Origin: Candidatus Iainarchaeum sp.
Lineage (GTDB): Archaea; Micrarchaeota; Micrarchaeia; Anstonellales; Bilamarchaeaceae
Length of the DNA: 64,000 bases
Assembly (NCBI GenBank): GCA_028714535.1
Contig: JAQTME010000004.1
Location: 7,319-71,318, forward strand
Direction of reading: 5' to 3'
Shown: positions 3,239 through 64,000 of the stretch, in pieces
Layout of the letters: each line of letters opens with the position of its first letter
Numbering within the stretch: the first letter of the stretch is position 1
Position numbers and translations under genes: made by a program
Notes under the pieces: model-generated
What the model was told of the DNA's origin: nothing
Seen by the model: the letters and a program-made list of their open reading frames with translations, nothing else
Databases searched by the model: none

Positions 3239-5191
3239 CTACTTCTTCTTCGGCTTCAGGCCGCTCAGCGGAGACTTCCCTATCTGGAAGGTGTTCTCCA
3301 CGTTCACGAACAGGCCTCCGGGCACGCGGTCTGCTTTGGCGCCGCCGATTTCCTGCGTGTAGCCCGCGCGGACGAGGAGGTCGAGCGGGAAGTCGACTAC
3401 CCTGCCGACATACCTCGTGTTGGCCGATGCCTCCAGCGTGCTCACCGCGGTCTTGAGGTTCTTCGTGGCGCTGACCGTGGCGTCGAGCTGGAGCATGAAC
3501 TTCTCGGTGGTGCGCGCGAACTGCGCAGGCGTCAGCTGGCCGCCCACCCTCAGCTCGTTCATGAGCGAGGATATCTCCGGCGTGAGCAGGGTCGTGACCC
3601 TCCAGCTGTTCTTCTCCCTAGTCGAGGCAGAGAATGTGATGTAGCCGAGCCAGTCTATGCCGCTGACCACGAGCCTGTCCTGCTCGAAGCTCATGGCAGG
3701 CCGTATCTGCCCGCCTACCTTCGCAGGCGGCAGCAGCATGAACCTGGTGCGGTCGCCTTCCGTGCCCCAGAAATTTATCTCAAGGCCGGCGAGGCTGAGG
3801 TACCACTGGTTGTAGCTCTGCGCAGGTATGTGCAGGGTGGTGCCGTCGCTGAGCAGCCTGTCTATGCCGTTGAGGCCCCAGGTCTTGTAGCCGCCGGTGA
3901 GGTTGAATTTTATCTCCATCGGCTGCCCGAAGAATCCGATTCCCTCTCCCCAGGTGCCTGTCGCCTCCACCGCGTGCCCCCTGCCGGTCAGCACCCCCCT
4001 GTCGCCGGTCGCCGTTAGCGGCGATCCCGTCGCGGTCGGGTCGTACTGCATGCGGGCGTACTGCCCGCTCATGCCGAGCATGGAATAGTGGAGCGCAAGG
4101 CCTGCGTAAAGCCCCACGGGCTGGAAGGTCATGAACCCCTTCGGCTTCTTGGTCCTGGTTATCTCGTCCTTGAACATCTGCTGGTTCTCGTCGAAGTTCC
4201 ACTGGCACTTCAGCCCGTACCTCATCGTGGTGAACGCCTTGGGGTTGGTCATCACGGTGAACAGGTTGTTTATCGCGTTGCGGAACTCCGGGTTGTTGAA
4301 CACGGTCTCGTTGCCGAGCAGCGCAAGGCCCGCGGCGAGGTTGCCGCTCTGCAATTGCTGCATGGCCGTCCTGAAGCTGCCGCTCTGCCACAGGTCGTCA
4401 GTGGACGGTATCCTGCTCAGGGCGGTGTAGAGGTCGCGGGCTGCGACCGGGGCTGCAGACGAGGACATGAAGTTCTCGTCGTTGGCCCACTGCTGCTGTA
4501 CGTTGGTGAACGACCGCATTATGTTCCGCGCGTTGTCGACGCCTGCCTTGTCCGCCAGTTCGCCTGGCGTCTGCGGGTCGCCGAACTGCCACACGGTGGA
4601 GTTCGTCCTTGCGCTGTTGACGAACAGCGCGCCCTCGTAGCGCTGCGGGGGCGGTATCAGGAGCAGCCCTTCGCTGGTTGACGACTTCGTTTTTTCGCTT
4701 ACCTGTATCTTCGTCGCTGCGCCGCGGAGCGTCAGGTTGATTTTCGCCATCTGGCCCAGGTACGCATCGTATGCATCGTATCTCGCATCGCCTGCCTTGA
4801 GGCCCTTGTCTATCTCTGAAAGCATTGTCAGGAGCGCCGTTGAATCAGCGCCTGCGTCTGCCTTGCCCGTGAGCTTGTTGGAAAGCTCTATCATCATCCT
4901 TATGTGGGCATCCTGGAGCTTTAGTATGGCCGCGTTCTTGTCCACCTTGGTGCCGGTGGTGCCCAGCGCCAGCGCTGAGTTGTAGAGTGACGTGCCTGCG
5001 ATGTCTGTTTTCGCCGGCGTGCCAGCCCACAGGAGCTTAAGCGTTTCCCATGCCTGGACCGTGTTGCGGGCGAGCTGCTGAGCGCTGTCGCTCGCGGGCT
5101 TGTAGCCCTCGCGTATCTGTGTGATCAGCTGCTGCTTCTGCGTTCCCACGTCCGTTTCCGTTTTCGGTGCGGTTTTCATCTCAGTCACCAT
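3239..5191 (-). CDS. Hypothetical 650-aa protein. N-terminal half alpha-rich; C-terminal ~330 aa with alternating hydrophobic/aromatic beta-strand pattern (beta-barrel/porin-like); no signal peptide found
   Basis: Long ORF with good protein-like composition. Stop is immediately adjacent to the start of 533-3238. C-terminal region rich in Y/W/F/G alternations (YAGLALHYSMLGM, QWYLSLAGLEINFWGT, GGLFVNVENTFQIG). Confidence 0.6.
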   Translation of the reverse strand: MVTEMKTAPKTETDVGTQKQQLITQIREGYKPASDSAQQLARNTVQAWETLKLLWAGTPAKTDIAGTSLYNSALALGTTGTKVDKNAAILKLQDAHIRMMIELSNKLTGKADAGADSTALLTMLSEIDKGLKAGDARYDAYDAYLGQMAKINLTLRGAATKIQVSEKTKSSTSEGLLLIPPPQRYEGALFVNSARTNSTVWQFGDPQTPGELADKAGVDNARNIMRSFTNVQQQWANDENFMSSSAAPVAARDLYTALSRIPSTDDLWQSGSFRTAMQQLQSGNLAAGLALLGNETVFNNPEFRNAINNLFTVMTNPKAFTTMRYGLKCQWNFDENQQMFKDEITRTKKPKGFMTFQPVGLYAGLALHYSMLGMSGQYARMQYDPTATGSPLTATGDRGVLTGRGHAVEATGTWGEGIGFFGQPMEIKFNLTGGYKTWGLNGIDRLLSDGTTLHIPAQSYNQWYLSLAGLEINFWGTEGDRTRFMLLPPAKVGGQIRPAMSFEQDRLVVSGIDWLGYITFSASTREKNSWRVTTLLTPEISSLMNELRVGGQLTPAQFARTTEKFMLQLDATVSATKNLKTAVSTLEASANTRYVGRVVDFPLDLLVRAGYTQEIGGAKADRVPGGLFVNVENTFQIGKSPLSGLKPKKK

Positions 5192-5211
5192 CTTTAGTCA
5201 CCTCATGAAGA

Positions 5212-5373
5212 TCATGCTGTGAATCCTACTGGTGATTGAGCAAAACTCTTATTAATACCCGCCGCTCCGGCTCCGAGAACAAGTGCGCTCGCCGCTGCCG
5301 CTGTGAATGCCGCGGCGGCATTGTGCGCTCCAGTTTTCTTCCCGGCTGGGTTAACCATGCTCAAACATTTCAT
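5212..5373 (-). CDS. Small Ala/Gly-rich hydrophobic peptide, 53 aa, translationally coupled inside the large-protein operon
   Basis: Strong Shine-Dalgarno GGAGGTGGGAG 3 nt before ATG (MKCLSMVNPAGKKTGAHNAAAAFTAAAASALVLGAGAAGINKSFAQSPVGFTA). Stop lies 21 nt before the ATG of the 650-aa gene. Confidence 0.45.
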   Translation of the reverse strand: MKCLSMVNPAGKKTGAHNAAAAFTAAAASALVLGAGAAGINKSFAQSPVGFTA

Positions 5374-5410
5374 TACTCCCACCTCCTTCTGATATCCACC
5401 CATGTTAGCG

Positions 5411-8400
5411 TCATTTCACTTCCTGCTGCGGCGTGACTACCACCACAGCGCGGCTCTCCGAGAACTTCACGACCCTGTCCGAGGCCGGGCTCGCCTTCTC
5501 CACCTGCTCGATATTGCCGCTCGCCTTGCCGCTGCCTATGTCGGCAATGAGGGTCAGCGTCGCCGAGACGTCCTTCAGGCTCGCTGATTTCGGCCTCGAA
5601 ACCATGGACATGTTCGCGTTAAGCGTCGCGTCCATCTCCGGCTCGTAGTCGGTCCCCTTCTTTATGCGGTAAAGCACGTCTTCAGGAGCCACCCTCCCCT
5701 TGGAGAGCTTACCGGCGTACGCCGGGCCCCTGGTCTCCACCGGCGGGGTCGGCTCTGCGCGAACCACCGCCCTGCCGATTTTCGTGCCGTCTGTCAGCAC
5801 CACGTTGTCCATCACGACGCCTATGTAGGCGTGCTCAGGGTCGCTCCTGTACGCAGGGTTGAGCAGGAACTCCTGCCCTGCCTGTTCCTGGTACCAGAAG
5901 TAATTGAACACCACCATCGCGTCCGGGTGCATCTTCGCGGCCTGGGCGTGTGTGTACGCCTTGCCCCCCTCCACCCATGTCATGTTGGTCGGGGAAGCGT
6001 ACACGAAGTGGCCCCTCGTGCGCGTGTCCTTTATTATGGCAATCGCGTCTGCCGGGACCGATGTCGTTACCGGCGTCTCAGGCAGCACCATGCCCTCGAG
6101 GTTCTTGTCGTCGAGGCTCGCCAGGGCCTGCTCTGCTGTCATTATGGACTGCACGGGCGTCATGGGCACCGAGCCGTTGAAGAGGCTGGTCCCGATTCTC
6201 ATGCCATACCTGGTGCGGAGCGCCTTGAGCTCGTCAAGCGATTCCACCGCCCTGACCACGAAATACCTCTTCGCGTCCCCTGACGTCACGAGCGTGCGGA
6301 TGGGCACCGTCGCCTTCCTGCCCGCAATCTCGACCTCTATGGACGCGGCCAGCCTCTTCTCCAGCTGCTGCAGCTTGAGATCGAGGATCTGCATGAACCC
6401 GTTGTTGATGGCGGTTATCTGCGCCTCCGGGGTCGTCGCTGCCTTGCCGTAGTTGAGGGAAATGTTGCGCATGCCTGCGGTGAACACCGATGCATCGAAA
6501 TTCCTCAGGAGCTCAGGGACGTTCTTGTCGCCGTTGAGTATCTCCTGCCTGTAGACCTCTGCAAAGAGGGCGCCCTGCGGGTATACCGGGGCGTCCAGGT
6601 GGCCCCTCTCCTGGTGGTCCACGTGCCTGTCTGCTATGGCCACGGTCGGGCTGGGCCTTGAAGCCTCGATCAGGAGCGGCTTCCTGACGACATCCGGGCT
6701 GAGCAGCCCGTAGGCGGTCATGAATGCCTGGCTCGGCGCGGGCAGCACCGGGCGCTCGAAGTCCCCTGCCCTCTTGCTGGCCAGCATCCTTATGTGGCCT
6801 GCCTCTGCGTTGCGGGCAGCCTCGACCGCCACATCACGGTCCGTCAGCTGCGCCTCTCTCATCTTGTCGAGGTCCACCTGTGCGCCCTTGGCTCCTACGC
6901 GGAGCTCAAGGACATGGCTCTTGGCGGCTTCGCTCTTGAAAAGCACTTCGTATCCTGCATGGACCTCGGTGGTGCCGAATATGGCCGGTGCGAGGAGGTG
7001 GATTGCATTCGAGGCCACGTCCCTCGCGAGGTCCGGATATGAATAGAACTGCGTGGGCCCTGCTTCAGGCACCTTGTAGCAGTGCTCGAACCTTCTCAGC
7101 GATGCGTTTATTATCTCCCTGGCCTGGCCGAACTGCTCTTTCGTCAGGTCTGCGCGGCCGATTGTGCCGGTGTTGAGTATCCATGTCTCAGCCGCCCTTG
7201 TGGCCACCATGTCCAGGGCCATGCTCCAGAGCGCGTCCGCGTATGCTATCTTGCCCTCCTTCTCCGTGGGCTGCTCCATCCCCAGCCACTTGTTCGCGGC
7301 TATGATGCGCTGGTCTGTCTGCTGGACGCCGGACGCCGACAGGAGCGAGGCTGCGGTCTGCACATAATAGCGCGCATCCTGCAGCTGCATGTCCACGTTG
7401 GCGTGGCCGGCATACTGGGCGTAGTCCTGGGCCCAGAGGGTCCAGGCGGAGTTCAGCGAAGCGAGCGTCTGCACCACTGGCTCTGTCGCCGCGTTGACCG
7501 GGGCGAACTGGTATGCTATGCGGTAGACGCCGTAGAGCGCGTCCTCCGTCATCCACCGCGGGTTGCTCATGAGCGCTGCCCTGACCTTCTTTTCCGGCTC
7601 AAGGTAGTTGCCCGTGGCGTTCCTGTACTGCGCGATGAGGAAAGTGCGGAGTTCAGGCGGGTAAAACTCATACGGGCTGATGCTCGGGTTCACCATGATC
7701 GCGGCCGCGGTGGAATATGCCTTCCACGCGTCCTGCCTTGCCGTTGCGTCCTTGCCCGCCAGGCCGTTCTGGAACGCGTAGCTCCACATGCCGACGAGGT
7801 CGCTTATGGCGCGGCTGTCCTTCATCAGTGCCTGCTCCATGTCCGCGACCTGCGTATATGAATACCTGCCCTTGGCAGTGGCGATCTGCCTGCCTACCTG
7901 TTCCAGGCGGTTGCTTGCGGCCGCCACCAGGCTGCCGCTGCCGTTGTCTACGCCTGTGCCGAGGGCGTGGTAGTACCTGTTATACTCTATTATCTTCTGG
8001 CTGTTCTTGAGCGCTTCCCCCCTGCCAGTTGCCACGGTGTTGATTCCGTCGAGTTTCTCCTGGGTGCGGAGCTGGCTGCTGTCAGGGAGCTTTTTCACTG
8101 CCTCGACGTTCCACGCCGCTATCGTCTGCAGGTTGCCCATCCTCTGCCCGAGCAGGGCCTGTTCCCTGTCGAAGATGGCGATTGCGTAGGTATACTGGCG
8201 CTTGGCCAGGTCGACATCCCCTGTGTTGAGCGTGTTCGCTGCTGTCCTGAGCGCGAAGTACATCTCCCACCTGGGCGATACCTTCATCGTCAGGCTCGAG
8301 GCGTCCGGCCTCACGCTCGCCTCGTCCTCGCTGAGCAGCCAGACGTCCGGAAGCGTCTTTATCATGCGTTCCGCGCTTGCCTTGACATCCTGCGTCCTCT

Positions 8401-9565
8401 TGGAGTCTGCAAGGATGGCGCTGAGCGTCTTGTTGAGGTCGGAAAGCTCCCGCATGAGCGGGTTGGTGCCCTCCTTGGACGCCACGCTGGCGTTGGTCAC
8501 GTCCCTGGCCGCCTTGAGGGCCAGCTGTATCGCCCTGTCTGAGTTGTATGAAGAGACGTATGTCTTGAGGTTGTCAATTGACCTGGCTGCCTGCTTCGCA
8601 TCAAGCGGCGTCGCCTGGGGCGAATTTGAAAGGTCGTAGGTCTGAAGCTCGTTGCTGATGTTGCTCTGGAGCTCGTATGCGTGGTCTCTTGCGGCTGCGG
8701 TCGGCCCGGGCGTCCTGGCGTTTCCCTCTGCCGCGCTTATTATGCGCGAGAGGTCCTGGATTATCGTTTCGATGCGTTCGCGTTCAGCCGGTGCTATCTG
8801 CGGTACTGTGACCTTGACCGGAACTGCGGTGGTGGAACTAGTCGCCTTCTTTTCTGGCGCCCGCTTCAATTCCACATATGAGCTCTCAGGGACTGCAGTG
8901 GTTGCCCTCTTTTCTGCCGGCTGCGGTATGACCGTTTTCGTTGTATCTGTCCTCGTGGGGACCTGGGTTGCCGGCGCGCTGATCGTTTTCGTCGGCGTGG
9001 ATGCGGTCATCGCAGCGCTCAGCTCCTCTCCGAACGTCGCGTTGTCGATGGCATTGTTGAGCGCCCTGTCCGTCTGCACCTTTATCCTTGCGAGCGTGAG
9101 GGTGTCGAGCCTGGCGGTTCCCGCAGGAATCGTGATGTAGTCGCTGCCCCTGCCCGTGGCGTCCTTGGCCGGGTTGTAGGGCCTCAGCGCGTCGTTGATC
9201 TGTGTGAGCGTCTTTACGAACGGGTCTCTGTATTTCGCCTTGGCTTCTGCCTCGTTTCCGGCAGGCATGCCCCGGACTTCCCTCGTCCTTGCGTACCTGT
9301 AGATAAGATTGTACTGGGTCTCGTATGTGGCCTTCAGCGAGGCCAATTCCTTCGCAGTCGTCTCCTTTTTTTCCGTCGTAACTGTTTGAGCCATGGCAAC
9401 ACCACCTGTAACGTCAAGGGCTATCGGAGCCCCAACAACTATCGCACCTACGGCGAACGCCCTGAAGGCGCGCCCGCCCGGTGTATCTCTGCCTGAATGA
9501 GAATTTAAAACTGCGTTGGTCGGATGTTTGAGTATCATTTTTCTCCCTCCTCTCTTGACAAACAT
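5411..9565 (-). CDS. Giant secreted/envelope protein, 1384 aa: N-terminal signal/TM, Thr/Pro-rich linker, long alpha-rich body
   Basis: N-terminal hydrophobic segment FRAFAVGAIVVGAPIALDVTGGVAMA. T/P/A-rich linker (TASTPTKTISAPATQVPTRTDTTKTVIPQPAEK...). TATA-like TTTATAAA about 25-30 nt upstream of ATG (leaderless). Confidence 0.65.
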   Translation of the reverse strand: MFVKRGGRKMILKHPTNAVLNSHSGRDTPGGRAFRAFAVGAIVVGAPIALDVTGGVAMAQTVTTEKKETTAKELASLKATYETQYNLIYRYARTREVRGMPAGNEAEAKAKYRDPFVKTLTQINDALRPYNPAKDATGRGSDYITIPAGTARLDTLTLARIKVQTDRALNNAIDNATFGEELSAAMTASTPTKTISAPATQVPTRTDTTKTVIPQPAEKRATTAVPESSYVELKRAPEKKATSSTTAVPVKVTVPQIAPAERERIETIIQDLSRIISAAEGNARTPGPTAAARDHAYELQSNISNELQTYDLSNSPQATPLDAKQAARSIDNLKTYVSSYNSDRAIQLALKAARDVTNASVASKEGTNPLMRELSDLNKTLSAILADSKRTQDVKASAERMIKTLPDVWLLSEDEASVRPDASSLTMKVSPRWEMYFALRTAANTLNTGDVDLAKRQYTYAIAIFDREQALLGQRMGNLQTIAAWNVEAVKKLPDSSQLRTQEKLDGINTVATGRGEALKNSQKIIEYNRYYHALGTGVDNGSGSLVAAASNRLEQVGRQIATAKGRYSYTQVADMEQALMKDSRAISDLVGMWSYAFQNGLAGKDATARQDAWKAYSTAAAIMVNPSISPYEFYPPELRTFLIAQYRNATGNYLEPEKKVRAALMSNPRWMTEDALYGVYRIAYQFAPVNAATEPVVQTLASLNSAWTLWAQDYAQYAGHANVDMQLQDARYYVQTAASLLSASGVQQTDQRIIAANKWLGMEQPTEKEGKIAYADALWSMALDMVATRAAETWILNTGTIGRADLTKEQFGQAREIINASLRRFEHCYKVPEAGPTQFYSYPDLARDVASNAIHLLAPAIFGTTEVHAGYEVLFKSEAAKSHVLELRVGAKGAQVDLDKMREAQLTDRDVAVEAARNAEAGHIRMLASKRAGDFERPVLPAPSQAFMTAYGLLSPDVVRKPLLIEASRPSPTVAIADRHVDHQERGHLDAPVYPQGALFAEVYRQEILNGDKNVPELLRNFDASVFTAGMRNISLNYGKAATTPEAQITAINNGFMQILDLKLQQLEKRLAASIEVEIAGRKATVPIRTLVTSGDAKRYFVVRAVESLDELKALRTRYGMRIGTSLFNGSVPMTPVQSIMTAEQALASLDDKNLEGMVLPETPVTTSVPADAIAIIKDTRTRGHFVYASPTNMTWVEGGKAYTHAQAAKMHPDAMVVFNYFWYQEQAGQEFLLNPAYRSDPEHAYIGVVMDNVVLTDGTKIGRAVVRAEPTPPVETRGPAYAGKLSKGRVAPEDVLYRIKKGTDYEPEMDATLNANMSMVSRPKSASLKDVSATLTLIADIGSGKASGNIEQVEKASPASDRVVKFSESRAVVVVTPQQEVK

Positions 9566-17124: not shown

Positions 17125-17255
17125 GGGGTTATGGCGTAATGTTGCAATGTCAACGCGCAGCCTGGTAGCGCGGCAGTCTCCAGATCTCTCCCGGCACGCG
17201 CCGGGAATTGTAGCCGCGAAAACTGCATGTCGGAGTTCAAATCTCCGTGACCCCA
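17125..17255 (+). tRNA. tRNA-Trp(CCA) with canonical anticodon-loop intron (~37 nt) and an apparent additional 21-nt insert between positions 9 and 10
   Basis: GGGGTTA-TG-[gcgtaatgttgcaatgtcaac]-GCGC-AGCCTGGTA-GCGC-G-GCAGT-CTCCAG[intron]A-ACTGC-ATGT-CGGAG-TTCAAAT-CTCCG-TGACCCC-A. All stems pair. Exon total is 73 nt. Confidence 0.7.
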
Positions 17256-35214: not shown

Positions 35215-35304
35215 AATGATCCCAATGAGAATCGATGACGAAGAAGAATGGGAAGACGACGACTTCGACGAGGAGGAGTGGGACGAGGAAGAAGAGGAAG
35301 AGTA
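35215..35304 (+). CDS. Micro-ORF encoding a 29-aa hyper-acidic peptide (MIPMRIDDEEEWEDDDFDEEEWDEEEEEE)
   Basis: ATG..TAG uninterrupted frame; 22 of 29 residues D/E, with two Trp. Lies between the HPRT promoter and a tRNA. No independent support. Confidence 0.25.
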
Positions 35305-40961: not shown

Positions 40962-41612
40962 GTGATTATCCGCATGATAAAAGGCGTCCTTTTCGACTTC
41001 GACGGCGTGGTGGTCCAGTCCGAAGCCCTCCACAAGGAGACCTTCCTGGAGCTGCTCGCGCCCTACGGCGTTTCCGTGTCAGAGGAACGCTGGTACAGGG
41101 AGTTCGCAGGGACCGGCTCGCGGCACATATTCGAAACGCTCGTCAGGGAGAACGGCATAAAGGCCGACGTGGGCGCGCTGGTCGAGCAGCGCAAGAGTAT
41201 ATACGAGGCGCGGGTGCGCCAGGGCGCGCTGAAAGAAACGCCGGGCGTGCGCGAGTTCCTCTCGCTGCTCAGGAAAAAGGGCATAAAGACCGCAATCGTG
41301 TCAGGGAGCCACAGGAGCAACGTCGCCGCAGCCCTGTCCGTGCTCCATCTGGGCGGCCTTTTCGACGTGATAGTCAGCGGCGACGACCTGGCCGAGAGGA
41401 AGCCGTCGCCAGCGCCGTTCCTGCACGCCGCGAAGCTGCTCGGCCTGAAGCCGCAGGACTGCGTGGCGGTGGAGGACTCTGTGTCCGGCTGCGCCTCCGC
41501 GAAAGCCGCGGGCATGCGCCTCGTCGTCGTCCAATCCCCCGCGAGCAAGGATTTATATGGCTACGATGCGATAATAGATGACTTTTCGGAGTTTCCGCTC
41601 GGGATGTTTTGA
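40962..41612 (+). CDS. HAD-superfamily hydrolase (beta-phosphoglucomutase-like subfamily)
   Basis: Motif I FDFDGVV, motif III K, motif IV GDDLAER...VEDSVSG. Confidence 0.75.
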   Translation: MIIRMIKGVLFDFDGVVVQSEALHKETFLELLAPYGVSVSEERWYREFAGTGSRHIFETLVRENGIKADVGALVEQRKSIYEARVRQGALKETPGVREFLSLLRKKGIKTAIVSGSHRSNVAAALSVLHLGGLFDVIVSGDDLAERKPSPAPFLHAAKLLGLKPQDCVAVEDSVSGCASAKAAGMRLVVVQSPASKDLYGYDAIIDDFSEFPLGMF

Positions 41613-41613
41613 C

Positions 41614-42789
41614 ATGATTAAGCTTGAGCTGGACCGGAAAAAGCGCTCTCTGTCCGTGAAGGAGCCGGCCGACGTCTCCTCGCTGCAGAACGGCTTTTAC
41701 GGCCAGATGAAGAAAGGGATAATATACCTCGCCCCAGAGGAAGCGCTCTACATAATGGACATAAGGAACGGGCGCTGCTTCGACGAGGTGGGCAACGAAT
41801 ACTCCTTCAATTCGGTCGCCGCGCTGTTCCTGAAGATAAAGAAGCTGCTGGCCCGCTACCTCACGTATAAGGACTATCGCGACAAGGGGCTGATACTCCG
41901 CGATGCGAAAGAGGCGGAAGGCGGCTACGGGCGCACGGTGCTCAAGAAATACGCGGGCGGCTCGTTCAAGTTCGACTCGTTCGCCTTCGAAGGGCTTTTC
42001 TTCCCGCAGGACTTATTGACGCTGGTCGACGACGAGAAGGTTGGCAAGGAACTCTACGAGCGGTATTGGATAGGCCAGTTCGGCACCTACAAGGCTGCGC
42101 ACCGCGGCCGCATATCCAAGCTGGACGTGTATGAGACGATTTTCCTGCTCAAGCACGGCGGCCTGCACCTTACGAATGCGAAGCTGCACGACGTCGAGAA
42201 GACGGCGCGCAAGCGCATAAAGTTCTTCGACGACATGTACCTCGTCTACGAGGACTGGAGGCGCAGGGGCTACGTGGTCAAGACCGGCTTCAAGTTCGGC
42301 ACCCATTTCAGGATATACTTCCCGGGCGCGTCGCCCGTCCGCGCAGAGGACGAATGGATGCACTCCAGGCACGTGATACACAACTTCCCCAGGAAGCACA
42401 AGCTGCTCATCTCGGAATGGGCGCGCGCCATCCGCGTGGCGCACAGCGTGAAGAAGACGTTCATACTGGCGATTCCGGGCAAGAAGGCCGCCATAAAGGT
42501 CGACCCGAAGAAGCCGCGGCTTGACTTCCTGCTCTACCACCGCCGCAAGGACGGCATAGAGACGCCGAAGGACGGCACGCCGCGCTACCTGATGTACTCG
42601 CTCACCGAGGACGAATATATCGGCGGCGAGGGGCTGGCCGAGGCGCTCGCGGAGGCCAGGCATTACGGCCTGGAGATGATGATGGCCATAAGCGACAGGG
42701 AGAGCAGCGTCACATACTACATAATCAAGGAGATCGAGCTCCCGGGGAGCGAATACGAGTACTATGAAATTGAGTGGTTGCAACCTTAG
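41614..42789 (+). CDS. endA: tRNA-splicing endonuclease with two tandem EndA-like units (alpha2/epsilon2-type architecture), 391 aa
   Basis: C-terminal catalytic unit GYVVKTGFKFGTHFRIY...HSRHV...K. Upstream degenerate repeat unit. Start chosen at MIKLELD just after the HAD stop. Confidence 0.65.
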   Translation: MIKLELDRKKRSLSVKEPADVSSLQNGFYGQMKKGIIYLAPEEALYIMDIRNGRCFDEVGNEYSFNSVAALFLKIKKLLARYLTYKDYRDKGLILRDAKEAEGGYGRTVLKKYAGGSFKFDSFAFEGLFFPQDLLTLVDDEKVGKELYERYWIGQFGTYKAAHRGRISKLDVYETIFLLKHGGLHLTNAKLHDVEKTARKRIKFFDDMYLVYEDWRRRGYVVKTGFKFGTHFRIYFPGASPVRAEDEWMHSRHVIHNFPRKHKLLISEWARAIRVAHSVKKTFILAIPGKKAAIKVDPKKPRLDFLLYHRRKDGIETPKDGTPRYLMYSLTEDEYIGGEGLAEALAEARHYGLEMMMAISDRESSVTYYIIKEIELPGSEYEYYEIEWLQP

Positions 42790-47138: not shown

Positions 47139-47918
47139 ATGAGCCTACGCCTCGCCGAGCTTATCTCATCCTCCGTTGAAAAGGCCCTTGAGGACCGGGT
47201 AGCCGTGGCCTTCTCGGGCGGCGTGGACTCGACTACCATCGCGGCCATAGCCAGGAAGCATGCCACTGTGGAATTGTTTTCCGCGGGCACCCCCGGCAGC
47301 GAGGACCTGGAATACGCCGTAAAGGTCGCCGCGTCGCTCTGCCTGCCCCTGCACCGTGTCATACTCGACCAGCAGTGCATCCTTGACGCGTACGCGCAAT
47401 GCCATGCCATGCTCCCCATGGACCTGCTGAAGCTCGAGATACTCGTGCCTGTCTACCGCGTCGCCGAGGCCGCGGCCAAGAAGGGCCACAAGGTGCTTCT
47501 TTTCGGCTCAGGCGCCGAAGAGCTGTTCGTCGGCTATGAACGCTACTACGCGTACAGGGAAGAGGGCAAGGACCTCGACGCGCTGCTCAGGGACGAGTTC
47601 AGGACCCTGCCCCAGCGCGACATCGGCTGGGTGAAGAAGGTCTGCCGGAAGTTCGGCATCGAGGCGCGCTTCCCGTTCTACGTGCCTGAGCTGGCCAGGT
47701 TCATGTTCTCCATACCGCTCGACGAGCGCATGGACTGCAGGGAGCTGAAGAAGGGCATCCTGCGCGAGGCGGCAAAGATGCTCGGCGCGCCGGAGCTTGC
47801 CGTCGGCAGGAAGAAGAAGGCCATGCAGTACGGCTCGGGCGTGCACAAGATAATCATGGGCAACTCGGAAGCAATCAACCGGGATTTTGCTGTTTTGCAG
47901 CCTCAATCACGTTGCTGA
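47139..47918 (+). CDS. PP-loop ATP pyrophosphatase family protein (asparagine synthase C-domain-like)
   Basis: SGGxDS motif (AFSGGVDSTT) and AsnB-like LFGSGAEELFVGYERY. Confidence 0.6.
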   Translation: MSLRLAELISSSVEKALEDRVAVAFSGGVDSTTIAAIARKHATVELFSAGTPGSEDLEYAVKVAASLCLPLHRVILDQQCILDAYAQCHAMLPMDLLKLEILVPVYRVAEAAAKKGHKVLLFGSGAEELFVGYERYYAYREEGKDLDALLRDEFRTLPQRDIGWVKKVCRKFGIEARFPFYVPELARFMFSIPLDERMDCRELKKGILREAAKMLGAPELAVGRKKKAMQYGSGVHKIIMGNSEAINRDFAVLQPQSRC

Positions 47919-48711
47919 TGAGCATCGCCACGGTCATCGGGCCGACGCCGCCCGGGACGGGCGTGCAGTTCGCCTTCTTTATCACGCCGTCGAAATCGAC
48001 GTCCCCGACGGTCTTTTCGCCCACCTTGTTCGTGCCCACGTCCACCACGTAAGCGCCTTCCTTCACCATGTCCGCCTTTATCAGGCCTGCGGAACCTGCC
48101 GCGGCGATTAGTATGTCCGCTTTTTTCGTATGCTCCGCGAGGTTCTTCGTCTTGGAATGGCAGATGGTGACCGTCGCGTCCTTCTGGAGGAGCATGAAGG
48201 CCAGCGGCTTGCCGACTACGTTGCCCCTGCCGACCACCACCGCTTCCGCCCCAGCCAGCTTCACGCCGTAGTGCTCAAGCAGGCGTATGATGCCCGCGGG
48301 AGTCGCAGGGAGGAAGCCAGGGGAGCCCAGGAACATCCTGCCCATGCTCGTGGGCGTCCATCCGTCCACGTCCTTCCTGGGGTCTATCGCATCTACGATT
48401 TTGGAATAGTCCATGTGCTTCGGGATTGGTGCCTGGACGATGAAGCCGTCCACGTTCTTGTCCTTGTTGAGCTTCTTGACGAGTGCGAGCAGCTCCTCCT
48501 CGGTCGCACTTTCGGGGAGCTTCTCAAGCCTGGCGAGCACGCCGGTGGACATCGCCTTCTCCATCTTCTTCCTGACGTAGATCTCTGACGCGGGGTCGTT
48601 CCCGACCAGGACGATGGCGAGGGACGGCTTGCGCTTCATGCCGGCGACGGCGGCCTTGGCCGTCTCGAGCAGCGCGGCTGCCGGTTCCCTTCCCGAGAGA
48701 ACTTTATACAT
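47875..48711 (-). CDS. folD: Bifunctional methylene-THF dehydrogenase / methenyl-THF cyclohydrolase (FolD)
   Basis: ...VGRGNVVGKPLAFMLLQKDATVTICHSKT... Rossmann and catalytic motifs. Start chosen at MYKVLSG; the ORF track extends 41 aa further. Confidence 0.8.
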   Translation of the reverse strand: MYKVLSGREPAAALLETAKAAVAGMKRKPSLAIVLVGNDPASEIYVRKKMEKAMSTGVLARLEKLPESATEEELLALVKKLNKDKNVDGFIVQAPIPKHMDYSKIVDAIDPRKDVDGWTPTSMGRMFLGSPGFLPATPAGIIRLLEHYGVKLAGAEAVVVGRGNVVGKPLAFMLLQKDATVTICHSKTKNLAEHTKKADILIAAAGSAGLIKADMVKEGAYVVDVGTNKVGEKTVGDVDFDGVIKKANCTPVPGGVGPMTVAMLISNVIEAAKQQNPG

Positions 48712-48773: not shown

Positions 48774-48945
48774 TGGGCCTGCGGAGATTAGTTCGAACCT
48801 TTTGAGATTCAGTTTTTGGTGCAGCTTTTCCCAAAAAGGTGCATTGAACTCCGGACCTACGGCTTTCCTAGGTCGCCAGTCGTACAGACTGTATTAGAAC
48901 GTGTCATATAAGACCGTCGCTCTAACCGAGCTGAGCTACAGGCCC
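48774..48945 (-). tRNA. tRNA with anticodon TAT (Ile-UAU-like) carrying two introns: 42-nt anticodon-loop (37/38) and 55-nt T-loop (58/59) intron
   Basis: GGGCCTG-TA-GCTC-AGCTCGGTTA-GAGC-G-ACGGT-CTTATA[42]A-GCCGT-AGGTC-CGGAG-TTCAA[55]AT-CTCCG-CAGGCCC-A. Exon lengths sum to exactly 75 nt and all stems pair. Confidence 0.6.
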
Positions 48946-49009
48946 ATCATCTCTGAATAAGCCGATAAACGTTTTTAAAAGGAATGCCGAAGGCCGTTTC
49001 AGCGGGCCC

Positions 49010-50059
49010 TCACGTCTTTATTTTGTGGCGGTATTTGATGTACGTCGCGTAATCTATGTACTTCTTCTTGCCGACGTAGTCCAGGGTCCTCGGCGCCTTC
49101 TTCCGCGCCGCGTCTATCCTGTCCGTTACGCTGATGGCGAACGAGTCGCTGCCAGCCCCGGAGCCGAATGAAGTGACCAGTATCTTCTGCCCTGCCTTCG
49201 CCTCGTCAAGGACCGCTGTAAGCCCAAGCGGCGAAGCGCCTGAATAGGTGTTGCCCACCATCGGAGTCAATAGCCCGACCTTCAATTTCTCCAACGGCAC
49301 GCCCAGCTGCTTCCCTGCCTCAAGCGGGAACTTGCCGTTCGGCTGGTGGAACACCACGTAATCATAATCAGCTATCTTCGTGCCGGTCTTCTCCAGCAGC
49401 CCCTTCGTGGCGCTCAGGACGTGCTTGAAATACGCCGGCTTTCCTGTGAACCTGCCGCCGTGCGTCGGGTAGTCAGCCAGCTGCCGCCTCCAGAAGTCAG
49501 GCGTATCAGTAGTGAAGGAAAATGTCGCCTCGACGATGGCGAGCGACTCCTTCTCAGGGCCTGCGATGAACGCGGCGCCGCCTGACGCTGCCGAGTATTC
49601 AAGCGCATCGCCCGGCCTGCCCTGCGCGGTATCAGCGCCGATGGCCATGCCGTAGGGAATCATCTTCGCGTCGACCATGGCAAGGACTATCTGCAGCCCT
49701 GCGGTCCCTGCCTTGCAGGCGAACTCCAAATCAGCCGCAGTAAGATTGGGCGTGGCGCCGAGCGCCTCTGCGACCATGGTCGCGGTCGGCTTCACCGCGT
49801 AGGGGTGCGATTCGCTCCCCACGTAGAGCGCGCCGAGCTTCTGCGGGTCCAATCCCGCGCGCGCGAGCGCGTTCCTGCCTGCCTCCACCGCGATGGTTGT
49901 GGTGTCCTCGTCTATGCCGCCCACCGCCTTCTCTATGATGCCCAGGCCGCTTTCTATGCGGTCCGTGTCCTCGCCCCATACCTTGGCGATGTCCTCGGTC
50001 TTGATCCTGTAAATCGGAACGTAAGCTCCATAACCGACTATTCCTGCCATAGTAATCAC
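49010..50059 (-). CDS. Hydroxymethylglutaryl-CoA synthase (archaeal mevalonate pathway)
   Basis: Thiolase-fold. Catalytic Cys in [11 protein letters not shown]-terminal GSGAGS. Confidence 0.8.
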
Positions 50060-60863: not shown

Positions 60864-63800
60864 TCAGAATTCCGCGCCTATCTTGAAGTTGGCGCGCCAG
60901 TTCACCCTGACGTCCTTGCCCTCTGCGGTTTCAGTCGTCAGGGTGCCTATCGAAAAGTCAGCTGATGCGGCCGGGTTCATGAGCATGGACCTGTTCGAGA
61001 GCATCCACGCCTTCATGGTGTATTCCACGCCTGCGGTGAGCGAATAGTCCGCCCTGAACATGCCCTCCTTCGCGGACTCCCAGTACTGGGTGCCGAGCTG
61101 CCCGGTCAGGCTGCTGTTTGACGTGAGCCAGTTGAGGCCCGCGTTCGCATCCCACTGGAGCGCCTCGCCGTAGGCCGCGCGGAGCAGCTCCTGGTTCTGG
61201 TGTATGAACGAGCCCGAAGCGAACACGTTGGCCAGCCTGAAGCCCGCCTTGTCCGAGTATGGCATGGTGAATATGACGCCGGCTATGCCCTCCTGCTGGT
61301 CCAGCCGCTTGGCCTCGTCCTTCAGGTAATCGGTGCTGAAGCTCGTCGCAGCGCCGAGCGTCCACCTGCTGCCGAGCGGCACGCTGACGCCCGCATGCCA
61401 TCCTTCGGCCAGCTCCTTTATCCGCCCGCCGCCTATGGACAGCTCCAGGACCGGGCTCCTGAGCCTGAATTCCCCTATGCCCGGGAAGTGCGCCTCGCCG
61501 CTGAACTTCGTCCTCGGCAGCGGCGTGAGCTCTGCTATGCCGCCTATTATCGGTATGGTCCTCTTGTCCCGCGACATGACGTACGCCCTGAGCCCAACAT
61601 CCGCCACGTCGTAGCTCAGCGGGGTCCAGTCGAAGTTCATGAATGCCGCGCCCTTGTCGTTCAGGACGTCCCATCCGGTGCCTGCCTCAAGGCCGAGCTG
61701 GTTCGTTATCGACCTGCGCACGCCTGCCGAAACCAGCGCCTCGCGCACCGACCTCTGCCCTGCCTGCGTGCCGGCCTGGCCTGCCTGCGCGGCATAGGTC
61801 CGCAGCCACTGCGCCGAGTCCGTGCCGAGCGTGACGTTGTTGTTCGCGTCGATCGTGATGCCTGACCCTGCGGGCGCGCCGCTGGTCGTGAGCAGCTCGA
61901 AGAGCCTCTGCCTCGCCTGGACGTTGGCGCCGACCGACCTGAGCGTGCCGCTGAGCCCGAGGTTCTGGTCATAGAACGCCTGGGCCTCCTGGCTCAGCAC
62001 CGTGACCTGGGACTGCGACTGCGTCGTCTCCGTGAATGTCTTGATGAGCGTTGATGCGACCATGCCGTTGAGCATGTCCCTGCTCACGCCGTAGATCTTC
62101 CCGCCCTCCAGGGCCTCCCTGCCTGTTTCGGCCTCCCTCAGGAGCCTGCCGAGGCCGAAGCCGCCGTAGCGCACGCCCATGTAGTCGCGGCCGAACATGT
62201 GGTTCACTATCGCCGCGCCCTGCAGGTCGTCAGCCGTCATGTTCTTCGCAAGGCCGATGAAGCTGCGCACTTCGGTGTCGTTGTTCTTCAGGTATGAGAA
62301 TTCGCCGTAGAACCTGCTCTTGCCGTCCGCCTCCACGCGGACATTCTCGGCAGTGAGCCTCCCCACCCAGAACGACCGCTTGTCAGGCATGAAGCGCCCG
62401 AACGCGCCCGCGGCCCTTCCGCCGCGCGTCTGCTCGTAATCGGCGTAGCCGCCCCACTTTCCGACCTGCGCCGCGGCGCCGGCCCCCTGGAACTGGTCCC
62501 AGGCGGTGTAGTCGCTGGTCCACGGCCCCGAGAAAAGCACCGCGCCGTCCATCTGCGCGAGCGCATCGCCTGTGCGCACCCCTGCGCCGCCATAGAGCCT
62601 CTGCATCGGCCTTTCGAACGCCTCTGCGTACAGGATGGCGGCCTGTTCCTCTGAAAGCGTCGCCGCGTCTGAAAGTATGAAGCTGCCGTTGGCCATGCGC
62701 TGGTAGGCGTGCGCGGTGAGGCTGACCTCGCCCTTGGCGTTCTCGTTGCGCCTGAAAAGCATGAACGTCTCGGCGCCCTTGGGCGCGATGGCAGAGAATA
62801 CGCTGCCTATGGTCTCCAGCCGCGTGCCGGCCTGCTCGAAGTCGAAGCTGCCTGTGTTGACGTTGTAGTTCTGCGACGTGCGCAGGTTCTGCAGTTCCAT
62901 GCTGCCCACCTGCCTGGTCTGGACGCCCATGCCCTCGCTTATGCTGTAGCTCGCCCTGGCGTTGGTTGTCGCCCCTTCCCTGGCCAGGTTTGAGGCGACG
63001 TTTATCGTCGTGGTCGTGTTGTCGCTGGTCCTTGCCCCGGTCGTCTTGTTGAGCGCGTATTCGTGGTCAGTCGTCGTGTTGCCGTAGACGTTGGCGGCTA
63101 TCCACCTGCCCACCGGCGGCAGGTCTGGCGCCAGGTCCCCTATGTTCCTGAGCAGGATGGGCATGTTGAGGTACGGCAGCGGCAGGTTCACGCTGCCCTC
63201 CACCATGGGCTTGCCCATGAAGATGCCCATCACGCGCAGGAAAGCCGGCGCGCCCGTGGCGGCCTCGACGAGCGCAGGCCCCCTTGCGACCTGCAGTATG
63301 CCAGTGCTGGCCCATTCCTCATAGACCCTTTTCGGCACGCGCACGCGTATGTTCGCGGACAGCAGGAATATTTCGGCGAATTTCGGGTCCTCGGCCGGAG
63401 TCCTCACCCTGACGTCGTAGCCCTGCTCCCTCCCGGCCGCCTGGATGGCGGTTATGTCGGTGAACAGCTTCGCGAGCCTGTCCGGCAGGGTGCTGTAATA
63501 CTCGATGAGCAGATTCTGGTAGTCCCCGTTCACGAACATCTGGCTGGAGCCCGCGATGAAGCTCGCGATTGCCGCTATCGACGCGTCGTCGTAGTTCCCC
63601 AGCAGCTTGTCGCCGATTGTCGCGAGCAGCATGGACGCGTAGGGCGCGGGAAGCGCGGACAGCTCGTTGATGAGCGCGCACACCTTGGCCATCTCCGCCT
63701 CGTTGCCCACCAGCATCCCGGACCAGTTCCTGCCATAGTGCTGCCTGAGCAGGCCGTATATGCCGTAGGCGTACTCGAGCTGGATGTTCCCGAACGCCTG

Positions 63801-64000
63801 CCTCGCCTTTGTCGCGAGTTCCTGCCTGGACTCCTTCAGGAGCCTCTCGCCCGAGAGCGTCGGCGCGGTTGCCGACAGCGCCGAGATGTGCCTGTCTATG
63901 TCGGATGTGAACCCGTTCCTGAACGCGATGAATTCCCTGTCCTTGCCCATGGCCTCGTATCTCGCCCTGAGCGCATCTACGTGGTCCACGCCGGTCGCGG
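60864..64000 (-). CDS. Giant envelope protein (more than 1041 aa; N-terminus outside window) with C-terminal beta-barrel-like region ending in ...VRVNWRANFKIGAEF
   Basis: Continuous ORF to the window edge. C-terminal ~250 aa with alternating hydrophobic/aromatic strands. Terminal Phe with hydrophobic residues at -3, -5, -7, -9. Confidence 0.6.
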   Translation of the reverse strand, partial: ATGVDHVDALRARYEAMGKDREFIAFRNGFTSDIDRHISALSATAPTLSGERLLKESRQELATKARQAFGNIQLEYAYGIYGLLRQHYGRNWSGMLVGNEAEMAKVCALINELSALPAPYASMLLATIGDKLLGNYDDASIAAIASFIAGSSQMFVNGDYQNLLIEYYSTLPDRLAKLFTDITAIQAAGREQGYDVRVRTPAEDPKFAEIFLLSANIRVRVPKRVYEEWASTGILQVARGPALVEAATGAPAFLRVMGIFMGKPMVEGSVNLPLPYLNMPILLRNIGDLAPDLPPVGRWIAANVYGNTTTDHEYALNKTTGARTSDNTTTTINVASNLAREGATTNARASYSISEGMGVQTRQVGSMELQNLRTSQNYNVNTGSFDFEQAGTRLETIGSVFSAIAPKGAETFMLFRRNENAKGEVSLTAHAYQRMANGSFILSDAATLSEEQAAILYAEAFERPMQRLYGGAGVRTGDALAQMDGAVLFSGPWTSDYTAWDQFQGAGAAAQVGKWGGYADYEQTRGGRAAGAFGRFMPDKRSFWVGRLTAENVRVEADGKSRFYGEFSYLKNNDTEVRSFIGLAKNMTADDLQGAAIVNHMFGRDYMGVRYGGFGLGRLLREAETGREALEGGKIYGVSRDMLNGMVASTLIKTFTETTQSQSQVTVLSQEAQAFYDQNLGLSGTLRSVGANVQARQRLFELLTTSGAPAGSGITIDANNNVTLGTDSAQWLRTYAAQAGQAGTQAGQRSVREALVSAGVRRSITNQLGLEAGTGWDVLNDKGAAFMNFDWTPLSYDVADVGLRAYVMSRDKRTIPIIGGIAELTPLPRTKFSGEAHFPGIGEFRLRSPVLELSIGGGRIKELAEGWHAGVSVPLGSRWTLGAATSFSTDYLKDEAKRLDQQEGIAGVIFTMPYSDKAGFRLANVFASGSFIHQNQELLRAAYGEALQWDANAGLNWLTSNSSLTGQLGTQYWESAKEGMFRADYSLTAGVEYTMKAWMLSNRSMLMNPAASADFSIGTLTTETAEGKDVRVNWRANFKIGAEF

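Follow-up and report, generated by a model that had tools for sequence, protein, structure and literature searches.

Comparison with described disrupted tRNA genes

The closest described system is that of ARMAN-2 (Candidatus Micrarchaeum acidiphilum), in which T-loop introns occur at 53/54 and 59/60 and the pre-tRNA-Ile(UAU) is interrupted by an intron at 37/38, the canonical position (Fujishima et al. 2011, PMC3239211). All three ARMAN lineages have tRNA-Ile(UAU) and lack both tRNA-Ile(CAU) and TiaS (PMC3239211). The present analysis concerns a tRNA-Ile(UAU) gene with two introns, found in a 64,000-nt stretch of contig JAQTME010000004.1 from Candidatus Iainarchaeum sp.; this whole stretch is hereafter called the window. 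The gene shares with ARMAN-2 the phylum, a UAU tRNA that would decode AUA, and a canonical intron in that tRNA. In addition, introns within the T-loop, several introns in one gene and a genome-encoded ε2 splicing endonuclease are common to both. The tRNA-Ile(UAU) intron of ARMAN-2 is 25 nt long and has a strict splice motif, whereas that of the window is 42 nt long and has a relaxed one. No T-loop intron is described for the tRNA-Ile(UAU) of ARMAN-2; the window has one in tRNA-Ile itself, and its site, 58/59, lies 1 nt 5' of the 59/60 site reported for ARMAN-2.

Multi-intron tRNA genes are also known from the Thermoproteales and other Crenarchaeota, with sites such as 20/21, 45/46, 53/54, 56/57, and 59/60 (PMC4090602, PMC8450103). 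These genes resemble the one described here in having bulge-helix-bulge (BHB) or relaxed BHB motifs at non-canonical sites, up to three introns per gene, a broad-specificity EndA, and related introns at different sites. They differ in lineage and in the enzyme: EndA is of the ε2 type with an ARMAN-type loop here, whereas theirs is of the (αβ)2 type with a Crenarchaea-specific loop. A tRNA-Ile3(UAU) is found in Nanoarchaeum equitans as well as Korarchaeum cryptofilum (PMC8450103). There, as is presumed here together with the absence of TiaS, a UAU tRNA-Ile takes the place of tRNA-Ile2(CAU) and agmatidine. These two organisms belong to other lineages, and no T-loop intron is described for their genes. 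A eukaryotic tRNA-Ile(UAU) with three introns is the same tRNA species and is likewise interrupted in the anticodon loop and the T-arm, with BHB-like motifs. It differs from the window gene in the number of introns and in its intron-dependent pseudouridylation, which has been studied experimentally.

Since ARMAN are known to have tRNA-Ile(UAU), no TiaS and T-loop introns, the locus adds to an already described kind of disrupted tRNA gene. The first-pass annotation had called T-loop introns rare and the UAU anticodon uncommon in archaea. Both statements hold across the Archaea as a whole, but T-loop introns had already been reported for ARMAN/Micrarchaeota, and the UAU anticodon is an ARMAN feature (PMC3239211) that is widespread in metagenome-assembled genomes (MAGs) of DPANN archaea. 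The evidence given below supports placing the gene with the heavily disrupted tRNA genes of Micrarchaeota that are served by an ε2 endonuclease. Three features appear to be particular to this locus: the T-loop intron in tRNA-Ile(UAU) itself, its position at 58/59 and not at the reported 59/60, and a splice motif that borrows G53 from the T-stem. The locus is best explained as a functional tRNA-Ile(UAU) gene of Micrarchaeota (DPANN), whose two BHB introns would be spliced by proteins and whose mature tRNA would read AUA. The probability of this explanation is estimated at about 0.88.

Structure of the gene and its spliced product

The gene is composed of the following parts.

48774..48945, minus strand: whole tRNA-Ile(UAU) gene, 172 nt, two introns between three exons; discriminator A73, CCA not encoded
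48907..48945, minus strand: exon 1, 39 nt, Sprinzl positions 1-37 including 17a and 20a; 5' strand of the acceptor stem, D-arm, 5' strand of the anticodon stem, loop C32-A37
48908-48910, minus strand: anticodon UAU, inside exon 1
48865..48906, minus strand: intron 1, 42 nt, canonical site 37/38
48844..48864, minus strand: exon 2, 21 nt, positions 38-58; A38, 3' strand of the anticodon stem, variable loop AGGUC, T-stem CGGAG, T-loop UUCAA
48789..48843, minus strand: intron 2, 55 nt, separating A58 from A59 of the T-loop, placed on the basis of junction enumeration, BHB motif and covariation
48774..48788, minus strand: exon 3, 15 nt, positions 59-73; A59 U60, 3' strand of the T-stem CUCCG, 3' strand of the acceptor stem CAGGCCC, A73

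Along the minus strand, the 172 nt follow the order GGGCCTGTAGCTCAGCTCGGTTAGAGCGACGGTCTTATA, 42 nt, AGCCGTAGGTCCGGAGTTCAA, 55 nt, ATCTCCGCAGGCCCA, and the exons add up to 75 nt (39 + 21 + 15). The 39th base of exon 1 corresponds to Sprinzl position 37, because the D-loop has two extra residues. The 75-mer spliced in silico was recognized by ARAGORN as tRNA-Ile(tat), a regular cloverleaf with all four stems paired. Its anticodon loop is CUUAUAA. The exact parse agrees with the coordinates, the intron lengths, the exon sum and the paired stems that had been proposed from the window alone, and the UAU anticodon proposed at the same time was found again in intron-less relatives with the same CUUAUAA loop. 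The isotype Ile follows from a class I tRNA with a UAU anticodon, and its assignment is based on that anticodon and on homology to intron-less genes of Micrarchaeota. The unspliced gene was detected neither by ARAGORN nor by Rfam, the latter at the gathering thresholds and also at E ≤ 1.

When the T-loop intron was removed and ARAGORN was run with the -i option, the program returned tRNA-Asn(att), for which it assumed an intron of 23 nt and a long variable arm. The locus would then encode a different tRNA, reached through other bounds of intron 1. However, this parse requires an anticodon stem of 4 bp and a variable arm of 24 nt, and no orthologue supports it; the CUUAUAA loop of the intron-less relatives also disagrees with it. 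The Asn(ATT) parse was rejected as spurious for its aberrant long variable arm and the disagreement of the orthologues, and any such alternative tRNA has next to no probability. An anticodon CAT had been named in the first-pass annotation as an alternative to be checked, and no choice of splice junctions gives CAU.

Orthologous genes and the position of the exon junctions

Orthologous loci L001-L004 were reached via contigs encoding FolD proteins 96% and 91% identical to that of the window. The gene order HMG-CoA synthase, tRNA, folD is kept in these loci. Their exons and intron 1 are identical to those of the window, and their intron 2 shows substitutions and paired indels. Species-representative genomes were scanned with a 5' exon pattern containing the TAT anticodon, which gave at least 119 loci. 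A scan of metagenomes, in which the 5' exon was fixed in the query save three free D-loop bases, gave 41 contigs. The orthologue set of tRNA-Ile(UAU) consists of 42 distinct gene sequences, 41 complete and one truncated. Exons are conserved across the orthologues; introns diverge in sequence, length and number.

All removals of one or two inserts downstream of position 45 were enumerated, and the mature T-loop UUCAAAU was reached by 41/41 complete orthologous genes. The T-arm is uninterrupted in L133 and L156. The 3' half of L133 is, letter for letter, the predicted join of exon 2 and exon 3, AGCCGTAGGTCCGGAGTTCAAATCTCCGCAGGCCCA. Furthermore, the intron-less tRNA-Ile(UAU) genes of the Micrarchaeota MAGs L052 and L081 agree with the spliced 75-mer at 71/75 positions by eye, including a compensatory change in the acceptor stem. 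The match of L133 and the intron-less relatives to the spliced gene is far beyond chance. The 5' exon of L094, a MAG labelled Candidatus Micrarchaeota, is identical to that of the window. Among the matches listed, several Micrarchaeota have an intron-less tRNA-Ile(UAU) gene, most Woese-, Pace- and Nanoarchaeota tRNA-Ile(UAU) genes have the 37/38 intron, and T-loop introns are also found in L087, L056, L097, and L111. The anticodon loop read in the intron-less relatives supports removal at 37/38. The earlier placement of the first intron after position 37 is upheld by this comparison and by a 3' end pattern shared among the orthologous introns, described below.

In the window, L001, L144, and L139, the sequence alone fits a T-loop junction at 57/58 as well as one at 58/59. 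A cut at 57/58 would give the same mature RNA from another cleavage site. However, 58/59 is the sole workable junction in L164, L126, and L143, which hold introns of the same family as the window, and the 3-4-3 geometry of the splice motif puts both cuts after the second bulge nucleotide only at 58/59. A junction at 57/58 is regarded as very unlikely.

A junction at 59/60, giving the mature T-loop UUCAAUU, should also be considered. In the T-arm this position corresponds to 37/38, and it is the reported intron site of tRNA-Cys and tRNA-Pro in ARMAN-2 (PMC3239211). Many orthologues have an intron there, and it is the sole workable site in L130, L151, L132, L142, L129, L161, L094, and L150. In some orthologues the 59/60 intron is accompanied by one at 53/54, an additional intron at 45/46 occurs in some, and the maximum is three per gene. 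In the window gene, however, the intron bases facing U54-A57 would be AACU at 59/60, which are unpaired. A junction at 59/60 would also split near-identical orthologues, with UUCAAUU in the window and UUCAAGU in L001, whereas with 58/59 UUCAAAU and complete pairing of the central helix result for the whole intron family. The use of 59/60 in this gene is highly improbable. The position 58/59, as it had been proposed at the outset, is supported by the uninterrupted T-arm of L133, by the T-loop common to the 41 complete genes and by the three orthologues that permit no other junction.

Splice motifs of the two introns

The archaeal BHB motif has two 3-nt bulges across a 4-bp helix, and cleavage takes place after the second nucleotide of each bulge. 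The elements of this motif at the T-loop intron are as follows.

48846..48849, minus strand: central BHB helix, exon strand G53 U54 U55 C56, 100% paired in 12 orthologues
48791..48794, minus strand: central BHB helix, intron strand GAAC (in orthologues also GGAC or GGAT), with the bulge U A|A59 after it
48834..48842, minus strand: inner helix h', 5' strand GCACCUUUU, intron nt 2-10, 9 pairs
48795..48803, minus strand: inner helix h', 3' strand AAAAGGUUC, pairing with intron nt 2-10

Intron 2 was drawn as a 3-4-3 BHB with a 9-bp inner helix, which includes one C·U mismatch, and with the bulges A57 A58|U and U A|A59. Because 58/59 is one nucleotide 5' of 59/60, the motif needs a shifted T-stem: the outer helix consists of A52-U60, G51-C61, and G50·U62, which is the T-stem slipped by two nucleotides and limited to 3 bp. 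Alternatively, the native T-stem might be kept, with a widened 3' bulge. When the 12 orthologues were compared, the central helix was paired in all of them (12/12; GAAC, GGAC or GGAT), and the two intron bulge nucleotides before the 3' site varied freely. The inner helix had 86% of its cells paired, with double-sided changes in 8/9 pairs. Overall, 91.1% of the cells of the motif were paired versus 79.5% in shuffles, and 0/500 shuffles reached 91.1%. Pairing fell to 31-60% when the partner strand was slid by 1-3 columns. L001 has lost one nucleotide from each strand of the inner helix, so that the register is kept.

In intron 1 the outer helix is supplied by the anticodon stem. C32-G, U33·G, U34-A, and A35-U, with TAGG of the intron, make up the central helix, which is accompanied by the bulges U36 A37|U and A A|A38. 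The pattern at the 3' end of this intron, namely the complement of C32-A35, two nucleotides and A38, is kept in 32/32 distinct orthologous introns. Most of these 32 versions have an inner helix of 3-5 bp.

Thermodynamic folding was also considered as evidence for the BHB motifs and was discarded. The minimum free energy (MFE) folds of the precursor use other pairings and do not recover the motifs. Therefore, the structural support comes from comparison and not from energy.

Two other candidate elements of the introns were examined. The first-pass annotation had described a palindrome, GGTTCGAACC, in the 55-nt intron. This was not borne out: the actual palindrome is the 8-nt GTTCGAAC (48791-48798), and the 10-mer GGTTCGAACT is imperfect. 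As a functional site the 8-nt palindrome was rejected, since only its GAAC half is conserved in orthologues. It is probably incidental, being composed of the GAAC strand of the central BHB helix and a non-conserved neighbour. The other candidate was a C/D box guide carried by an intron, of which Haloferax pre-tRNA-Trp is an example. With RUGAUGA for box C and CUGA for box D, no box C was found in either intron. The CUGA of intron 2 is not conserved (CGGA in L003), and this candidate was also rejected.

Splicing endonuclease encoded in the window

Pfam scans of the 51 open reading frames (ORFs) of the window identified a gene for a tRNA splicing endonuclease.

41578..42789, plus strand: tRNA splicing endonuclease EndA, three-unit ε2 type, 403 aa, Pfam PF01974 and PF02778; 6 kb from the tRNA gene

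This protein aligned with the EndA of ARMAN-2 (PDB 4FZ2) in one stretch, residues 16-403 on residues 5-387, with 48% identity (E = 3.9e-127). Other solved EndAs matched it only in the central catalytic unit. The αN, α, and βC units are collinear with those of the ARMAN-2 enzyme in one polypeptide. It is known that a loop with K161 is responsible for the broad range of substrates accepted by ARMAN-2 EndA, for which the units were also defined (PMC3488258). The sequence of this specificity loop is GTYKAAHR in the window EndA and GTYKVSEH in ARMAN-2, and the lysine is kept. The ARMAN-2 ε2 enzyme cuts pre-tRNA-Ile(UAU) with the 37/38 intron in vitro (PMC3239211, PMC3488258), and it also cuts a relaxed T-loop intron at 59/60 in vitro (PMC3239211). 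The window EndA is expected to cut both introns.

Proposed pathway and its evaluation

Two elements flanking the gene might be involved in its transcription.

48972..48980, minus strand: TATA-like A/T-rich box TTTTAAAAA, 27-35 nt upstream of tRNA position 1; also present in L001 and L003
48767..48773, minus strand: T-rich stretch TTTTATT directly 3' of A73, read from sequence

The box would be the promoter, and the TTTTATT stretch is likely to be an archaeal transcription stop. Transcription from this promoter of its own would give a precursor of approximately 172 nt plus leader and trailer. Both BHB introns would then be removed by the archaeal protein splicing machinery, with each 3-nt bulge cut after its second nucleotide by the EndA of 41578-42789. 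The exons would be ligated by an RtcB-type ligase, and CCA would be added after splicing. The mature tRNA, with the T-loop UUCAAAU, would read AUA and replace the tRNA-Ile(CAU) and TiaS/agmatidine of most archaea. No CAU tRNA was found in the 64-kb window by ARAGORN or Rfam.

Several points weigh against a functional, spliced tRNA-Ile(UAU) gene. Splicing and the exact cleavage sites are deduced from sequence. No RtcB or TiaS family member was found among the 51 ORFs, a search confined to the 64-kb window. The alignment used for the covariation of intron 2 was built around the proposed structure. The BHB conformers of the T-arm do not have the minimum energy: the strict motif has -4.7 kcal/mol and the form with the native T-stem -8.0 kcal/mol, whereas the MFE fold has -15.7 kcal/mol. 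In addition, the strict motif of intron 2 requires the register-shifted T-stem of 3 bp, which competes with the native T-stem. The identical mature RNA that 57/58 gives in the window gene means that this site is excluded only by the orthologues and the BHB geometry. Finally, the inner helix of intron 1 is a single G-C pair in the window lineage, followed by a CAGTC/GACTG hairpin; because the inner helix is almost absent, intron 1 has to be regarded as a relaxed BHB.

The locus might instead be a tRNA pseudogene in decay, in which insertions have accumulated and from which no working tRNA is processed. Standard tRNA finders are blind to the locus, and its BHB folds are not those of minimum energy. 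However, the T-arm and the 3' exon are unchanged or compensated in 41 orthologues, while the introns diverge in sequence, length and number. The upstream TATA-like box is conserved, and compensatory changes preserve the splice motif. Furthermore, the gene of a matching broad-specificity endonuclease is present, and no other AUA decoder was seen within the 64 kb examined. Decay of this kind is extremely improbable, and a functional tRNA-Ile(UAU) gene with two introns is the preferred explanation.

Complementarity between intron 1 and the D-arm

The intron of the eukaryotic tRNA-Ile(UAU) is known to have a role in the folding or modification of the precursor. A segment of intron 1 of the window gene is of interest with respect to the precursor.

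48893..48901, minus strand: intron 1 nt 6-14, CGUUCUAAU, complementary to the 3' side of the D-arm, GUUAGAGCG (48918-48926, G19-G26)

This segment is directly followed by ACA (48890-48892), and the helix formed by the two strands is part of the MFE structure predicted for the complete precursor. In 10/25 archaeal tRNA-Ile(UAU) genes with a 37/38 intron, intron nt 3-18 can form 7 or more consecutive base pairs with the 3' side of the gene's own D-arm. Shuffles gave a mean of 0.81 and a maximum of 4 in 1000, and three other exon segments, taken as controls, gave 1, 0, and 0. The ARAGORN intron calls on other intron-containing tRNAs of the fetched loci were too noisy and too few to serve as a control. 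The complementarity covers 7-10 bp and also occurs in L016, L036, L056, L064, L083, L087, L089, and L097. Two compensated changes were observed. Position 20a forms U-A in the window, L097, L056, and L016 and C-G in L036, L064, L087, and L089, whereas position 26 forms G-C in most lineages and A-U in L016. ACA or AUA is located at intron nt 15-17 in five lineages.

Because this helix is topologically incompatible with both the cloverleaf and the BHB, it would be an alternative fold confined to the precursor. Such a hairpin would unfold the D and anticodon stems and place U33-A37 in a T-loop-like loop above approximately 12 bp. It might control or direct a modification of U34 that depends on the intron, such as the pseudouridine of eukaryotic tRNA-Ile(UAU). 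Another possible role is that of a checkpoint in folding or splicing. The idea that in tRNA-Ile(UAU) of Micrarchaeota and of several further lineages of archaea the 37/38 intron is a conserved antisense of the D-arm, its pairing being kept by compensatory changes for one of these roles, is tentative and rather doubtful. The complementarity may have come from selection, from quasi-palindrome correction at the DNA level, or from shared descent. It should be mentioned that the distance from U34 to the intron ACA is 17 nt, equal to that from U55 to A73 (of ACCA). For the present, to argue from this spacing for mimicry of a T-arm or of H/ACA is numerology. If the D-arm pairing is functional, it would be a first hint that the intron of an archaeal tRNA-Ile(UAU) takes part in the folding or modification of the precursor.

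Apparent relocation of the T-arm intron

The 58/59 intron family (window, L001-L004, L144, L153, L139, L143, and L126) aligns over its full length with the 53/54 intron of L094, L150, L134, and L149. Since the alignment extends over the whole length, the same intron is located 5 nt apart in orthologous genes. When L143 (TTGCGCTTTTTTAGGAAAAAAGCGCCCAAAAAACGGGCGTGCTAAAAAGCGCAGAACCG) and L134 (TTGCGCTTTTTGGAAAAAAGCGCCCAAAAAACCCGCTCGTAAAAAGCGCACCGAAA) are compared, the differences are mainly in the last approximately 6 nt, which pair with the exon in the central helix. The T-arm intron appears to have been shifted by 5 nt, from 53/54 to 58/59, by retargeting of the 4-nt complement of the central helix; the two kinds of copy suggest that the intron slid or was relocated. 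A separate 33-nt intron at 59/60 is also present in the genes with the 53/54 copy. Long T-loop introns at 59/60 (79-150 nt) are found in L162, L128, L159, L151, L125, L132, L142, and L124. They contain GTTTCC/GGAAAC-like repeat units, which form long imperfect hairpins, and this intron family differs from that of the window. With one to three introns at 37/38, 45/46, 53/54, 58/59, and 59/60, the 42 orthologous versions provide a natural data set on the gain, loss and shift of BHB introns.

Genomic surroundings and other observations

The tRNA gene lies between two genes on the minus strand, that of an archaeal HMG-CoA synthase (49010-50059) and that of FolD (47875-48711). The window FolD is 100% identical to the protein MDD5340041.1 of an NCBI MAG, and the named relatives include Candidatus Bilamarchaeum (class Micrarchaeia, DPANN). 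The G+C content is approximately 60%. The locus extends the link seen in ARMAN-2 between an ε2 endonuclease, heavy tRNA disruption and UAU-based AUA decoding to an uncultured Micrarchaeota clade of this G+C content.

A second two-intron tRNA gene was found in the window and counts in favour of the explanation preferred above.

17125-17255, plus strand: tRNA-Trp(CCA), interrupted at 37/38 by an intron of 37 nt and in the D-loop by an insert of approximately 19-21 nt

This gene was not detected by ARAGORN, and its match to Rfam lies below the default filters (40.7 bits). Together with tRNA-Ile(UAU), it brings the disrupted genes to two of the four tRNA genes in the window, both hidden from annotation by ARAGORN and default Rfam within 64 kb. 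Because such genes escape both tools, DPANN MAGs annotated in this way will seem to lack an AUA decoder and other tRNAs.

L003, the relative whose FolD is 91% identical, has a spacer of approximately 400 nt between the tRNA gene and folD, instead of approximately 60 nt. This is due to insertion of a 90-aa fragment with a Cas12f1/TnpB-like zinc ribbon (PF07282; positions 1621-1893 of L003).

Three MAGs labelled Methanosarcinales (L056, L097, and L111) have a tRNA-Ile(UAU) with 37/38 and T-loop introns. Each has an adjoining tRNA gene by eye, and a T-loop intron in this neighbour is apparent in L097 and L111. Since this style of gene seems unusual for Methanosarcinales, these bins may be misassigned or chimeric. 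Among the matches listed (L005-L123, at least 119 loci), a tRNA-Ile(UAU) with an archaeal-like 5' half is common in the candidate phyla radiation (CPR)/Patescibacteria, and it also occurs in some MAGs of Streptomyces, Ignavibacteria, and Gammaproteobacteria.

Four very large ORFs (901, 650, 1384, and 1041 aa) lie on the minus strand at 533-9565 and 60864-63989, and none of them matched a Pfam family at E ≤ 1e-5. At 35231-35297 on the plus strand there is a possible unannotated archaeal C/D small RNA, with weak similarity to the C/D box small RNA sR53 (26.4 bits against a gathering score of 49, E = 0.06).

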